The notes under the pieces are model-generated. The model made no database searches. It saw only the letters and a list, made by a program, of their open reading frames with translations, and was not told the origin of the DNA. From contig JBDHUY010000009.1 of assembly GCA_039809385.1 (NCBI GenBank), positions 1 through 64,000 of the forward strand: 64,000 bases of DNA, given 5' to 3'. This DNA is from Candidatus Altimarinota bacterium. GTDB lineage: Bacteria; Patescibacteriota; Gracilibacteria; JBDHUY01. The number at the start of each line of letters is the position of its first letter. The first letter of the stretch is position 1. Positions 2,112 through 10,571 of the stretch are shown here, piece by piece. Position numbers and translations under genes: made by a program.

Positions 2112-3395
2112 ATGCCCGCCGCTCCTTCCGGACTCTACCTCATTGACGGAAATTCCCTGATGTACCGCGCCTTTTTCGCCGTACCGCCGTTTAAAACCAG
2201 CAAAGGACTTCCCACTAATGCGATTTTCGGATTTATCAAAATGATCTTCAAATTGCTCAAGAATCAAAACCCCGATTACCTCGGAGTCGTCTTTGATCCG
2301 CCGGGGCCGACCTTCAGAAGCGATTTATTTGAACAATACAAAGCGCATCGTCCCAAAGTTCCGGACGATCTGAGCATCCAGAGAAGTTACCTGCGTCAGG
2401 TCGTAGAAGCCATGCGATTACCCGTGCTGGAACAACCCGGTTTCGAAGCAGACGACGTAATCGGCAGCATGGTAGAAAAATACAAAACACACTGCGGGGT
2501 GATCATTGTCTCGGGAGACAAAGACCTCATGCAGTTCGTCGAAAACGGCAAAGTCTGGCTCTACGACAGCATGAAAGAGGTTTTTTACCAACGGGAAGAA
2601 GTAAAGGCCAAAATGGGGGTCTACCCCGAACAGATCATCGACCTGCTTTCTTTAATGGGCGACACGTCAGACAATATTCCGGGGGTAAAGGGCGTGGGAC
2701 CAAAAACAGCTGAAAAACTGCTGGACGAGTACGGATCTTTACGGGGTGTATATGAACATCTGGATCAGATTACCGGGTCAGTCCAAGCAAAATTAAAGAG
2801 TGAAGAAGAACTGGCTTTTTTGAGCTATAAACTGGCCACTATCAAGACTGATCTGACAATCGACAAACATATCGATGATCTCAAGATTCAGGGATTTGAT
2901 ATTCCTGCCCTGATAGAGCTGTTCACCGAACTGGAATTCTCCTCGCTGAAAAAAGAACTGGAAGGATTCGGTACGTTCGAAGCCAGCCTGTACGAAAAAC
3001 CGAAAAAAATTTATGAAAAGCGGTATACTACGATCATCGATCAAGACGGATTGGAAAAAGTTTTACAGGAAGCGCGTGAGCAGAAGATGCTGGCCATCGA
3101 TACCGAAACCACTTCAACCGACGCGCTGAACGCCGATTTAGTAGGCGTGTCGCTGTCATGTCATCAGAATATCGGGTACTACATACCGATCGCACATGCC
3201 GAATACGATGCCAATCTGGATAAAGCGTATGTTCTGGAAAAGTTGTTCGAGCTGATCGACGACGATCAGATTCTGAAAGTCGGTCACAATATAAAATACG
3301 ATCTGACCGTTCTGGAACAGGAACGAAACCGGTTAAAAACCGGGGCAACGATTCCAAAGAAAAAAGGGATTACCGATCAGATGAATCTACTCTAA
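2112..3395 (+). CDS. polA: DNA polymerase I N-terminal part: 5'-3' exonuclease plus partial 3'-5' exonuclease, no polymerase domain
   Basis: LIDGNS, YKAHR, FEADDVIG, SGDKD and GDTSDNIPGVKGVGPKTA; ExoI AIDTET and ExoII GHNIKYD. Stops after 427 aa in QMNLL. Confidence 0.9.
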   Translation: MPAAPSGLYLIDGNSLMYRAFFAVPPFKTSKGLPTNAIFGFIKMIFKLLKNQNPDYLGVVFDPPGPTFRSDLFEQYKAHRPKVPDDLSIQRSYLRQVVEAMRLPVLEQPGFEADDVIGSMVEKYKTHCGVIIVSGDKDLMQFVENGKVWLYDSMKEVFYQREEVKAKMGVYPEQIIDLLSLMGDTSDNIPGVKGVGPKTAEKLLDEYGSLRGVYEHLDQITGSVQAKLKSEEELAFLSYKLATIKTDLTIDKHIDDLKIQGFDIPALIELFTELEFSSLKKELEGFGTFEASLYEKPKKIYEKRYTTIIDQDGLEKVLQEAREQKMLAIDTETTSTDALNADLVGVSLSCHQNIGYYIPIAHAEYDANLDKAYVLEKLFELIDDDQILKVGHNIKYDLTVLEQERNRLKTGATIPKKKGITDQMNLL

Positions 3396-3632
3396 TGCTA
3401 CGACAAATTAATTCTATAACCTACCGTAATGACGACAGAAATCCTAAATTTGAATATCCAAATCCCAAATAAATTCGAAATACCAATACGCAAACTGCAA
3501 ACATTGCTCTCAATTTAATGTTTCTGGTTTGGTATTTGTGATTTGTTTCGTCCGCCGCAGCGGATAGAGTTTCGGATTTAGGATTTAGCACTAATGTATG
3601 TGGACGAATTACATTGCACTGATACTAGTTGT

Positions 3633-4601
3633 ATGAAGTTTCTAGAAGAACTAAAAAAAACAATTCGGGCTCCGCAAGCGCGGATCGTTTTTGCCGAAAG
3701 CGACGACGAGCGTATTTTGGAAGCGGTTGTACAAATACGCCGCGAAGGTTTTGCTATACCCGTCTTGCTGGGAGAATCCGACAGAATTCACGCAAAAGCA
3801 AAAGAGCAAGAACTGGATCTGGGCAATATAGAAGTAACTCCGATATCAAACGCATCTCAGCAGGACGAGCTGGCCGCACTCCTGTATGAACGGCGCCGGC
3901 ATAAAGGCATGACACCGGAAAAAAGTCTGGAGCTTGTAAAGAATCCGCTCTATTTCGGAGGACTGTTGGTAGAATCCGGGAAAGTCGATGCCATGATCGC
4001 CGGCGCAAGCAATACGACAGCCGATATACTCAAAACAGCGCTTCACACAGTCGGTACAGGACAACAGGAAGGACGGGTTTCGAGCGTTTTTTTGCTGGAA
4101 AAAGAAGATACTCTGCTCTTTTTTGCCGACTGTGCCGTTAACATAGAGCCGAGTGCCGAAGAGCTTGCCCACATCACTCTATCTACTGCCGAAACAGTCG
4201 AGAAACTCGGTATTGAACCGAGAATCGCGCTGCTATCTTTTTCAACCCACGGTTCGGCAACCCATCCGCTTGTGACCAAGGTACAAACTGCGTTACAAAT
4301 CAGTAAAAGTAGTCGTCCGGATCTCATGATTGACGGAGAACTACAGTTCGATGCGGCCTTTATTCCCGAGATCCGAGCACGAAAGGCACCCGGCAGTTTA
4401 CTTACAGGAGCGGCCAACGTCTTTATTTTTCCAGACCTCAATAGTGCCAATATCGGTTATAAAATCGCCGAGCGTTTGGGCGGATTCACAACGGTCGGTC
4501 CCCTCCTGCAGGGCCTCAAGAAACCGATTCACGATCTTTCCCGCGGGTGTAAAACGGAGGATATCGTGAATATGGCCATTATTACGGCGCATCAGATATA
4601 G
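3633..4601 (+). CDS. pta: Phosphate acetyltransferase
   Basis: FADCAVN, ALLSFSTHGS, DGELQFDAA, FPDLNSANIGYK and DLSRG. Start moved to ATG 3633. Confidence 0.93.
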   Translation: MKFLEELKKTIRAPQARIVFAESDDERILEAVVQIRREGFAIPVLLGESDRIHAKAKEQELDLGNIEVTPISNASQQDELAALLYERRRHKGMTPEKSLELVKNPLYFGGLLVESGKVDAMIAGASNTTADILKTALHTVGTGQQEGRVSSVFLLEKEDTLLFFADCAVNIEPSAEELAHITLSTAETVEKLGIEPRIALLSFSTHGSATHPLVTKVQTALQISKSSRPDLMIDGELQFDAAFIPEIRARKAPGSLLTGAANVFIFPDLNSANIGYKIAERLGGFTTVGPLLQGLKKPIHDLSRGCKTEDIVNMAIITAHQI

Positions 4602-6370: not shown

Positions 6371-7528
6371 ATGCGCACCACCCTTGTCGTAAATCTCGGA
6401 TCATCTTCGGTCAAATACAAGCTTTTTAAAGGCAGAAACGAGCAGGCGGTTTCGTCTGGTGTGATCGACCGGATCAGTACAGCTCCGCAAGCACGTTTAG
6501 ACAATACGATCATGGAGCTTCCGATTCATAACCACGCTGAGGCCTTGGAATGGCTGAAAGCTTATTTTTTGAATAAAAGAATTATACAAAATGAACAAGA
6601 GGTAGACACAACCATTCATCGAGTTGTGCACGGAGGTGAATATTTCCAGGAACCCGTTCTGGTTGACAACAAGATTTTACAAAAGATCAGGAAACTTTTC
6701 CCGCTTTCGCCTTTGCATAATCCGATCAACTATGCCGGGATACGCACCGTCCAAAAATTGTTCCCCGAGAGCCGTCATGCGGCAGTATTCGATACCGCTT
6801 TTTACGACTCGATTCCAAAAAAAGCCTACCTCTACGGCATACCGTACAAGTACTATCAGCGCTATGGAATAAGGAAATACGGCTTTCACGGGATCAGTCA
6901 TCGCTATATGGGAACCGAAGTGGCCCGGATAATGAAGCAAAAACAGTTACGACATATTTCGTGCCATCTGGGAAACGGCTCATCGATTACAGCGATAAAG
7001 AACGGGAAAGCCATCGATACGACCATGGGGTTTACACCTTTGCAAGGGCTGATCATGGGTACCCGCTCGGGCAGTATCGATCCGGCGATCATCCCTTTTT
7101 TGGAAAAAAAAGAAAAACTGTCTGCTACCCGCATCAATACGATTTTGAACGAACAATCGGGTATATTGGGTTTTTCGGGCATCAGCAGCGACGTGCGAGA
7201 TATCTATACCTTCGTCAAACAGGGAGACGTCCGCGCAAAACTGACCCTGGATATCCTGTCCTATCAGATTACTCAGTTTATCGGACAAATGATCGGCATC
7301 TTGGGAGGTGTCGATGTCATTTCGTTTACGGGGGGCGTCGGACAAAACGCTTTTTATATCCGTTCTGCGGCGCTAAAACCTTTGAACCATATGGGAATAA
7401 TCTTGGACGAATCCAAGAACCGGGCAAATAAAAGCGTTATTTCTGCAAGCGGCTCCTCCACCCGGGTCATGGTATTGGCAACCGACGAAGAACTTGAAAT
7501 GTTTCGGGAATCTCGTGATCTGCTCTAA
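6371..7528 (+). CDS. ackA: Acetate kinase
   Basis: LVVNLGSSSVKY, HRVVHGG, PLHNP, FDTAF, YGFHG, HLGNGSS, TMGFTP and TDEEL. Confidence 0.97.
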   Translation: MRTTLVVNLGSSSVKYKLFKGRNEQAVSSGVIDRISTAPQARLDNTIMELPIHNHAEALEWLKAYFLNKRIIQNEQEVDTTIHRVVHGGEYFQEPVLVDNKILQKIRKLFPLSPLHNPINYAGIRTVQKLFPESRHAAVFDTAFYDSIPKKAYLYGIPYKYYQRYGIRKYGFHGISHRYMGTEVARIMKQKQLRHISCHLGNGSSITAIKNGKAIDTTMGFTPLQGLIMGTRSGSIDPAIIPFLEKKEKLSATRINTILNEQSGILGFSGISSDVRDIYTFVKQGDVRAKLTLDILSYQITQFIGQMIGILGGVDVISFTGGVGQNAFYIRSAALKPLNHMGIILDESKNRANKSVISASGSSTRVMVLATDEELEMFRESRDLL

Positions 7529-9290: not shown

Positions 9291-10571
9291 ATGTCTTCCT
9301 CCCTGATCGCTTTGCTGGACTGTAATAATTTTTATGCTTCGTGTGAGCGCGTTTTTGATCCGGCTTTGCGAAACAAACCGGTAATCGTCTTATCCAACAA
9401 CGATGGCTGCGTGATCGCACGTTCTAATGAAGCCAAGAAGCTCGGTATCCCGATGGGAGCGCCGGTGTTTCAGTACCGGGATGTAATACATGCCCATAAA
9501 GTAATAATGCGCTCCAGCAATTTCACACTCTACGGAGACATGTCCAACCGGGTGATGAAAACAATCTACGTGTTTTGCGACAATATCGAGATCTATTCGA
9601 TCGACGAAGCTTTTATTTCGTTGGAAGGATACGATACAGCGACAGCGGTGGAGCGGATGAAAGCGCTCAAAAAAACGATCGAACAGTGGACCGGTATCCC
9701 GGTTTCGGTCGGGATAAGCCAGACCAAGACACTCGCCAAAATTGCCAGCCACAAAGCCAAAAAAGACCCCGATACCGGCGGGGTCTGTCTGTTAGACGCA
9801 GAGGATAAAGAAAAACTCAAAAGTCTGCTAGCCGAGCTTCCCGTAAAAGAGGTCTGGGGAATCGGCTATCGCACGACCCGTTTTCTGGAAAACCGTTATA
9901 TTCGAACGGCTCTCGATCTAGTTGAGAAACCGGACGAGTGGATTCGCAAAAATATGACTATCGCCGGACTCAAGACGGTCTGGGAACTGCGGGGAAAAGC
10001 CTGCTTGAGCTCGCATAACGAGGATACTCATAAATCGATCCTGTGTTCGCGCTCGTTCTCCAAGGCCATTATGAACAAAGCTGAACTTTTCAGTGCCTTG
10101 GCTCAATATCTGGCGCGGGCGTGCGAAAAACTCAGAGACCAGCATTCGGTGGCTCACACAGCGACTATTTTTATTGCCAGCAGTCGTTTTTTAGACGCGC
10201 AAGAAAGATACAGCAACAGCTATACCATCAGCCTCTCGGGAGGTTCGAATGCCCCGCCTGATTTTCTGCTCCCAATGCGGGAAGCCCTGGATCAGATCTA
10301 TAAAAGCGGTTACGGTTACAAGAGAGCCGGCGTGGTGCTGAGCGGCATGGTTCCTGAAAAAGGGCGCCAGATGAGCCTCGTCGACAATGCCGTGGCGCTC
10401 GAGAAAAAAAGAGAAGTTTTGGCCAGTTATGACCGTATAAATCGAAAATTCGGCCGCGGCACACTCCAGTTTGCCTCGCTACTGGGCAAAAACAAACTCA
10501 CCCACCGGGATCCGGAATATACTTCCCCTCGTTACACCACGAAGCTGGAAGAAGTGCTCAAGGTTCGATAG
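9291..10571 (+). CDS. umuC: UmuC Y-family translesion polymerase
   Basis: DCNNFYASCE, LSNNDGCVIARS, YSIDEAF, TKTLAK, QMSLV clamp motif and SPRYTT. Confidence 0.95.
   Translation: MSSSLIALLDCNNFYASCERVFDPALRNKPVIVLSNNDGCVIARSNEAKKLGIPMGAPVFQYRDVIHAHKVIMRSSNFTLYGDMSNRVMKTIYVFCDNIEIYSIDEAFISLEGYDTATAVERMKALKKTIEQWTGIPVSVGISQTKTLAKIASHKAKKDPDTGGVCLLDAEDKEKLKSLLAELPVKEVWGIGYRTTRFLENRYIRTALDLVEKPDEWIRKNMTIAGLKTVWELRGKACLSSHNEDTHKSILCSRSFSKAIMNKAELFSALAQYLARACEKLRDQHSVAHTATIFIASSRFLDAQERYSNSYTISLSGGSNAPPDFLLPMREALDQIYKSGYGYKRAGVVLSGMVPEKGRQMSLVDNAVALEKKREVLASYDRINRKFGRGTLQFASLLGKNKLTHRDPEYTSPRYTTKLEEVLKVR

Follow-up and report, generated by a model that had tools for sequence, protein, structure and literature searches.

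A DNA polymerase I gene split inside the proofreading domain, with a conserved motif of the beta-clamp-binding type at the fission point, in a Candidatus Altimarinota genome

The gene for DNA polymerase I (polA) of a Candidatus Altimarinota bacterium (assembly GCA_039809385.1, here genome G000) is split into two complementary pieces, and the N-terminal piece ends in a conserved peptide that, judged from its sequence, is of the beta-clamp-binding type. This piece, polA-N, lies at 2112..3395 on the + strand (TAA included) of the window, the 64,000 nucleotides of contig JBDHUY010000009.1 that were analyzed. It encodes a flap endonuclease (FEN) domain, the first half of the 3'-5' exonuclease domain and a tail ending in QMNLL. 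The second piece, polA-C, is found on another contig and encodes the second half of the exonuclease domain and the polymerase. A preliminary description had read polA-N as a polymerase-less Pol I and possibly a clamp-tethered FEN. Of this reading, the maintained gene and the conserved clamp-type motif stood. The enzyme proved to be one half of a split polA, and the label "polymerase-less" had to be given up, since a separate PF00476 gene of 493 amino acids (aa), which starts with the missing exonuclease half, is present in the same genome.

A DNA polymerase I split into two complementary genes

PolA-N starts with ATG, is 427 aa long and has the C-terminal sequence GHNIKYDLTVLEQERNRLKTGATIPKKKGITDQMNLL, with the TAA at 3393-3395. 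The gene was delimited by the list of open reading frames (ORFs), by Pfam and by homologues of 420-464 aa with the same end. Its FEN domain (2133..2900) consists of a resolvase-like N-terminal part (residues 8-169; 5_3_exonuc_N, PF02739, E 4.5e-56) and an H3TH/SAM fold (residues 170-263; 5_3_exonuc, PF01367, E 1.6e-34). The first half of the 3'-5' exonuclease domain follows (residues 305-404, 3024..3323; DNA_pol_A_exo1, PF01612, E 9.3e-16), covering only positions 1-94 of the 173 in the profile. Within it lie ExoI (DTET, residues 330-333, 3099-3110) and ExoII (HNIKYD, residues 392-397, 3285-3302). The FEN domain and both motifs are intact, as had been described.

In the alignment with the solved Klenow structure, residues 304-402 correspond to chain positions 6-106, and homology ends at residue 402. 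The tail behind this point, QERNRLKTGATIPKKKGITDQMNLL, is 25 aa long (residues 403-427, 3318..3392), with 6 basic and 2 acidic residues and no Klenow counterpart. QMNLL, the candidate beta-clamp-binding motif, forms its last five residues (423-427, 3378..3392), directly before the stop codon. An AlphaFold2 (AF2) model based on 11 homologues had a mean predicted local distance difference test (pLDDT) value of 85, mostly above 90 in the FEN domain and 84-93, by ten-residue blocks, in the half-exonuclease domain (residues 301-410). Residues 414-427 are predicted to be disordered, because the pLDDT of these last 14 residues was below 50; QMNLL lies in this segment, at the extreme C-terminus. The basic tail and the end of homology thus agree with the preliminary description, as does the surrounding DNA. 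Pfam found no PF00476, that is, no family-A polymerase domain, in the 427-aa polypeptide, and no continuation of polA was seen in the window downstream of 3395, where 3396-3593 is taken up by a palindromic repeat and a 335-aa ORF begins at 3594.

For the missing polymerase, the whole assembly (1.87 Mb, 26 contigs, 95% complete) was searched with PF00476. A single family-A polymerase was found, on contig C4 and not on the contig of the window. Its ORF (C4:34642-36123, 493 aa, N-terminal sequence MSYPYFDTMIAEYLLD) has its own ATG exactly at the break. Residues 4-82 of PolA-C match PF01612 at profile positions 101-172 of 173, and residues 117-490 match PF00476 (E 4.7e-162). ExoIII (YSAEDA) is at residue 63. 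Because this gene starts with the exonuclease half that polA-N lacks, the window gene is half of a split polA.

The two pieces complement each other along the Klenow chain. PolA-N covers chain positions 6-106 and PolA-C, with its residues 6-492, positions 117-605 (E 5e-145); they are therefore complementary halves of one polA. All five DEDDy exonuclease residues are present, but only across the two polypeptides, with ExoI and ExoII on the N piece and ExoIII on the C piece. The fission point is inside the 3'-5' exonuclease domain, in the loop after the ExoII helix, where about ten Klenow residues (chain 107-116) are missing and the 25-aa tail stands in their place. Outside the Pol I homology there are just these 25 aa on the N piece and 5 aa on the C piece. 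The polA of this genome is a split gene and not a broken one.

Directly upstream of the polA-C start on contig C4, a stretch of ~410 bp (L001:740-1152) has no ORF of at least 80 aa. By eye, it looks rich in G+C and in short inverted repeats, and it has no Rfam match at E 0.1.

The same fission point was found in seven of 41 genomes of the class, a sample made up of G000 and 40 relatives (G001-G040). The arrangement of the pieces differs among these seven. They are at distant loci in G001, which belongs to the same family as G000, and ~190 bp apart in G005. The two ORFs share one reading frame in G004 (L007:2700-2720) and G036 (L008:2680-2712), where the ATG of the C piece comes only 1 or 5 codons after the TAA, an arrangement suggestive of translational coupling. 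In the single-contig, TGA-recoded genomes G034 and G022, the halves are 80 kb and 240 kb apart. All seven N pieces end in TAA. An uninterrupted polA was seen in the class only in G015 (944-aa open frame) and G006 (897-aa open frame).

The ten closest database homologues of PolA-N tell the same. They are 346-464 aa long (eight of them 420-428), 39-62% identical, and all stop at one and the same position, with endings of one type, in agreement with the earlier suggestion that the gene is not broken. In its source, one of them carries the name Candidatus Peregrinibacteria. Contigs that come from an independent study bridge the polA-N tail, the stop codon and the repeat with 0 differences (X4, 3264-3900; X6, 3134-3556). 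The split polA-N is a maintained gene, and neither an assembly error nor a recent accident.

In-frame TGA codons were noticed in the FEN, DnaN and polymerase matches of G012, G020, G022, G029, G030 and G034, which is consistent with TGA recoding. The genes of the window itself are open under table 11.

The C-terminal motif and the beta-clamp

The alignment of 11 homologues shows at least 90% conservation at Q423 but no conservation in the ~20 preceding columns. The C-termini of the ten closest homologues read QMKLI, QMGLFS, KMDLFSSP, QMKMF, QMDLFTT, QMGLFE, QMKMC, QMPLF, QPSLL and QLKLI. QMNLL fits the pattern Qxx[LMI][FL], with L in the last position instead of F, like the validated QLSLL of mycobacterial Pol I.

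C-termini of FEN proteins were taken from 40 of the 41 class genomes (G024 had no FEN match), and two of these 40 are full-length Pol I. The pattern, followed by at most three residues, is present in 28 of the 38 FEN proteins that are not fused to a polymerase, a number that includes L032 (QMSMF) and L039 (QLQLF), which had failed the FEN motif filter. It is exactly terminal in 26, and it occurs in 20 of the 24 families contributing unfused FEN proteins. These are counts and not a test, because related genomes are not independent. Outside the pattern are the endings QMTLEL (G034), QMNLAL (G022), QMTLVF (G008), QLSFF (G032), AQTLF (G018) and PETLF (G019), together with four more that are taken up below.

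As background, the pattern was counted in the open frames of at least 200 aa of the same genome. It stands within three residues of the end in 11 of 1300 and is exactly terminal in 3 of 1300. Database representatives also yielded 15 Pol I fragments 346-480 aa in length, none of which fits it. When 1.84 billion representatives were searched with a solo FEN as query, 29 of the best 149 matches were 280-345 aa long, and 17 of these 29 carry the motif; the names of cluster members, looked up for 10 motif-bearing representatives, were Candidatus Peribacteraceae and DNA polymerase-1. In an evenly drawn sample of 61 genomes of the phylum, most with full-length polA, the solo-sized FEN frames outside or at the edge of the class have the motif in 7 of 13 cases and near-variants in 5 of 13. 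Solo FENs across class and phylum thus end alike, and the alignment bears out the conserved clamp-type ending that the preliminary description had proposed. By its sequence, the C-terminus of PolA-N is a conserved motif of the beta-clamp-binding type, beyond what chance would give.

The QMxL[LV] flavour of the clamp motif is also present in another protein of the window. As noted before, the UmuC-like Y-family polymerase (9291..10571, + strand; IMS, IMS_C and DUF4113 domains) carries an internal QMSLV at residues 360-364 (10368-10382). Y-family polymerases are known to bind the clamp, and they carry their clamp motif where QMSLV sits in the UmuC-like protein.

Peptides of this kind are known from the literature. 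The clamp-binding consensus is given as QxxLF (PMC12926913). The peptide QLSLLDD of Mycobacterium tuberculosis (Mtb) Pol I binds its clamp with a Kd of 272 nM, and leucine-to-alanine changes abolish the binding (bioRxiv 10.64898/2026.09.19.751633).

The preliminary description had proposed modelling the tail with DnaN. Two copies of the DnaN of this genome (C5:11215-12318; alignment of 27 relatives) were co-folded with PolA-N residues 388-427 (alignment of 11). The ipSAE scores were 0.41, 0.42 and 0.38, compared with 0.00 for the best of three controls, and replacing DnaN by an unrelated protein gave 0.00. Contacts agreed between runs to at least 72%, and the partner pLDDT was at least 42. The calibration set contained 80 solved complexes, of which 58 reached the mark, and 110 mismatched pairs, of which 2 did. 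Among scores up to 0.60, it was reached by 7 of the 80 solved complexes and by both passing mismatches. The co-fold is compatible with binding of the tail to DnaN and lends it weak support, short of proof.

Motifs of the same type were also seen in the full-length Pol I of other classes in the phylum. Four of 25 frames (L079, L091, L088 and L084) contain QGSLF, QESLF, QRNLF or QGELF at frame positions 294-340, roughly in the FEN-exonuclease linker, where solo FENs end. From their sequence, these could be internal clamp motifs. One of the 11 frames of G000 with a clamp-type C-terminal motif is a transposase frame at the start of a contig (C5:21-1256, that is, L075:21-1256; DDE_Tnp_1 domain, PF01609, E 1.4e-13), which ends in HQLALFSS. 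Transposition of the Tn3 family is reported to work through the beta-clamp (PMC11417375).

Relatives without a Pol I polymerase match and the possible origin of the split

Nine of the 41 genomes of the class gave a PF00476 match; among the 36 with a completeness of at least 90%, there were 6. The same nine were found with PolA-C as query. No PF00476 match was found in the other 32, 30 of which are at least 90% complete. A FEN gene is present in 31 of these 32, with frames of ~300-390 codons from stop to stop; in the remaining genome (G024, 85% complete) no FEN match was found. The FEN of the relatives without a Pol I polymerase match typically has ~315 aa and ends in QxSLF, and it is FEN-only. 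The half-exonuclease domain is absent from all 31, because the FEN match never passes query residue 304. PolA-N is not FEN-only, having half of PF01612 (residues 305-404) and a complementary gene. The preliminary description had implied Okazaki-fragment maturation without a Pol I polymerase domain. This does not apply to G000, which has PF00476. For the relatives, the gene content suggests that primer removal may indeed proceed without a Pol I polymerase.

A maximum-likelihood tree of the FEN domain was computed from 34 of the 40 sequences. Left out were L032 and L039 (FEN motif filter) and L013, L028, L034 and L035 (start-motif filter). All split and full-length forms, together with two solo forms, fall on one side of the tree (support 100/99), and the other 23 solo FENs on the opposite side. 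The two full-length genes are nested among the split ones, and the starred branches force at least two changes of split state. Either fission occurred repeatedly at the same loop, or a single fission was followed by re-fusion; the tree is compatible with both.

The full-length Pol I of G015 (L005) has an insertion of ~20 residues exactly at the fission loop, after ExoII: DRCFPKDSLFDASNISSLHWGG. This insertion holds PKDSLFD, in which DSLF resembles the clamp motif minus Q. As a lead, the sequence would fit an internal clamp motif that preceded the fission or was left behind by re-fusion.

Directly after the polA-N stop, an imperfect palindromic repeat occupies 3435..3590 (no strand assigned; inverted repeats I1-I8). 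The element is dispersed, intergenic and ~100-150 bp long, with further copies at C13:20891-20986, C11:59781-59876 and C1:65071-65169. With the spacer that separates the polA pieces of G005 (L003:2773-2990) it shares 71% identity. G005 belongs to another family, with proteins just ~50% identical. No Rfam match was found for it (window 3300-3700). By its form and distribution, the repeat may be a mobile or REP-like (repetitive extragenic palindromic) element, and it was possibly the agent of the fission.

Proposed joint action of the two halves, alternatives and known systems

We think it likely that the two genes together encode Pol I and that the subunit with the FEN is attached to the beta-clamp by the QMNLL tail. 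The split polA would give a two-subunit DNA polymerase I, to which PolA-N would contribute the FEN, the first proofreading half-domain and the tail, and PolA-C the second half-domain and the polymerase. QMNLL, on its flexible tail, would dock into the hydrophobic pocket of DnaN. This would keep the nuclease on the clamp that stays behind at the 3' end of every Okazaki fragment, as the PIP box keeps FEN1 on PCNA. The two half-domains would re-associate, so that the clamp hook of PolA-N would bring the polymerase as well. In most relatives, the polymerase and the half-domain would have been lost, with the clamp-hooked FEN alone remaining.

The exonuclease motifs of the two pieces have had the same fate. 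G000, G005, G034 and G022 retain ExoI/II on the N piece together with ExoIII on the C piece; G001, G004 and G036 have lost both, a concordance of 7 out of 7. G000 and G001, from one family, differ in this respect. The half-domain of the N piece is present in 7 of 7 genomes with the C piece and in 0 of 31 FEN-bearing genomes without a PF00476 match. Together with halves that complement each other to within about ten residues, these patterns favour joint action of the two pieces.

Several observations weigh against the tethered two-subunit enzyme. The concordance rests on related genomes, with only ~4 independent lineages. QMNLL has a final L instead of the canonical F. Some of the class endings are poorer, namely QMKMC (G005), NSALF (G033) and VLPLIF (G007), which are outside the pattern, and FLISSD (G012) has no recognizable motif. 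The co-fold score is weak, and its pass may reflect likeness or memory, because clamp-peptide complexes are abundant among solved structures. A free clamp motif was not found in PolA-C, in which the sole Qxx[LMI][FL] is QVVLF at residue 152, within the PF00476 match. In the preferred model, the hook at the fission point therefore tethers the whole two-subunit enzyme.

The most serious alternative is that PolA-N acts alone as a clamp-tethered flap endonuclease with an inert half-domain, and that PolA-C is an independent gap-filling polymerase, with no heterodimer; it is the preliminary reading in a narrow form. We consider this unlikely, but worth weighing. The terminal motif is equally found on solo FENs in 31 genomes without a polymerase partner, so the hook would serve the nuclease by itself. 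A lone N piece would also fit the decayed exonuclease motifs of G001, G004 and G036, and the halves are not co-transcribed, since they lie on separate contigs in G000 and at distances of 80-240 kb in G034 and G022. However, the half-domain is kept, at similar length, only alongside the C piece, and the five DEDDy residues are kept across both polypeptides in four genomes and lost together in three. PolA-C begins with ~110 aa that make up half of a DnaQ-like fold, and such a half would hardly be stable alone.

Short hydrophobic C-terminal peptides are used by several systems. The terminal Qxx[LM][FL] might thus dock some other partner, such as SSB, ligase or RNase H, in place of DnaN, or be a degradation tag, a reading left some room by the weak co-fold score. 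We regard it as improbable. The consensus of Q, two variable positions (S preferred at the third), L/M and F/L coincides with the published clamp consensus QxxLF, the UmuC-like protein of the same genome carries QMSLV, and the co-fold score fell to 0.00 when DnaN was exchanged for an unrelated protein.

We give very little credence to a recently broken gene or an assembly error, with a tail read out of context and QMNLL arisen by chance. The genome is a 26-contig draft, the dispersed palindromic repeat right after the stop is a typical break site of assemblies and genomes, and at least two changes of split state in the FEN tree mean that fission or re-fusion happened more than once. Yet the independent contigs cross the junction without a difference, the ten database homologues share length class and ending type, and the same split exists in the single-contig genomes G034 and G022. 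PolA-C begins with an ATG exactly at the break, and none of the 15 arbitrary PolA fragments ends in the motif.

A joining of the pieces by stop-codon read-through, split intein or trans-splicing into a full-length Pol I with the motif never exposed could appeal to the same-frame ORFs of G004 and G036, but can practically be dismissed, given the distant loci in G000, G001, G034 and G022, the TAA at the end of all seven N pieces, the mere 25 + 5 extra aa, the lack of a Hint/intein domain in either polA piece (Pfam) and the lack of an Rfam match in the polA-C locus and window 3300-3700, so that there is no sign of an intron or known RNA at the fission point.

We also incline slightly towards a wider reading. 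Lagging-strand maturation in this Peregrinibacteria-like lineage of the candidate phyla radiation, and probably wider in the phylum, would be organized around a beta-clamp-tethered FEN, an independently evolved counterpart of FEN1-PCNA. Pol I would first have been cut where the hook emerges, and in most relatives it would then have been reduced to the hooked nuclease, with gap filling by another polymerase.

Canonical Pol I (E. coli Pol I/Klenow; PolA1 of PMC12926913) has the same FEN, DEDDy exonuclease and family-A polymerase in the same order, but here they are distributed over two genes on different contigs, and the N piece ends in a clamp-type motif. E. coli Pol I gave no sign of a clamp motif, and that of Mtb Pol I is described as restricted to Mycobacteriales (bioRxiv 10.64898/2026.09.19.751633). 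In the actinobacterial PolA2/APEX, QxxLF is located in a vestigial exonuclease loop, and the authors take it to be the first such motif known from bacterial A-family polymerases (PMC12926913). As here, a Qxx L L/F peptide is in both cases tied to the part of a family-A polymerase that holds the 3'-5' exonuclease. The Mtb motif, whose binding to the clamp was shown, has the same ...SLL-type ending as QMNLL and QASLL (bioRxiv 10.64898/2026.09.19.751633).

The Mtb Pol I and PolA2 motifs are internal to one polypeptide, whereas the free C-terminus described here is made by gene fission. By structure alignment, PolA-C residues 7-490 correspond to chain 6vde_A 422-905. We take 6vde to be a mycobacterial Pol I. 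That the mycobacterial motif (457-463, Mtb numbering) sits in the fission loop was considered and rejected. It would be ~35-40 residues further on, within the same domain but in another loop, if the numberings are close.

PolA-N also resembles the FENs that are not fused to a polymerase, such as B. subtilis FenA/YpcP, E. coli Xni/ExoIX, mycobacterial FenA and the "solo Exo5-3". It differs from FenA/Xni-type FENs in keeping half an exonuclease domain and in having a partner gene. Species without Pol I nearly always have a stand-alone FEN, according to a 2026 survey of bacterial polymerases (PMC12926913). Such FENs occur where Pol I is missing and can substitute for its nuclease (PMC12926913, PMC13220808), and FenA is described as a stand-alone flap endonuclease in a review on replication in E. 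coli and B. subtilis (PMC13220808). In the available parts of PMC12926913 and PMC13220808 there is no mention of a clamp motif on solo FENs, and in those of PMC12926913 none of a split polA. In the part of its supplement that was covered, the clamp columns concern other polymerase families only.

The principle would be the same in FEN1 with its C-terminal PIP box on PCNA (PMC1636371), namely a FEN held by a short peptide on a flexible tail. The differences are a DnaN dimer instead of a PCNA trimer, Qxx[LM][FL] instead of the PIP box, and an independent origin. FEN1-PCNA is the nearest functional analogue, by analogy and not by family membership.

Neither a clamp motif on bacterial solo FENs nor a polA split in the exonuclease domain was found described in the literature searched, in which subscription journals were outside coverage. 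Taken from the sequences, the split inside the proofreading domain, the apparent hook at the fission point and the apparently hooked FENs across the class, with no Pol I polymerase found in most relatives, would form a coherent picture that is undescribed in this literature. According to the papers cited here, the first reports of a clamp motif in an A-family polymerase date from 2026 and concern actinobacterial PolA2 and Mycobacteriales Pol I (PMC12926913; bioRxiv 10.64898/2026.09.19.751633). If FEN is hung on DnaN by a C-terminal peptide in the whole class, the FEN1-PCNA principle would have arisen twice. This would also explain how primer removal is targeted in bacteria in which no Pol I polymerase was found, 32 of the 41 sampled genomes. 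The split polA is a natural fragment-complementation experiment on the Klenow proofreading domain. It also carries a warning for annotation, as genes of the PolA-N type are labelled "DNA polymerase I, partial" or "hypothetical protein" in databases.

Two neighbouring genes lie 3' of polA-N, on the same strand. The 335-aa ORF at 3594-4601 is, by eye, phosphate acetyltransferase-like, and the ORF at 6371-7528 acetate kinase-like.

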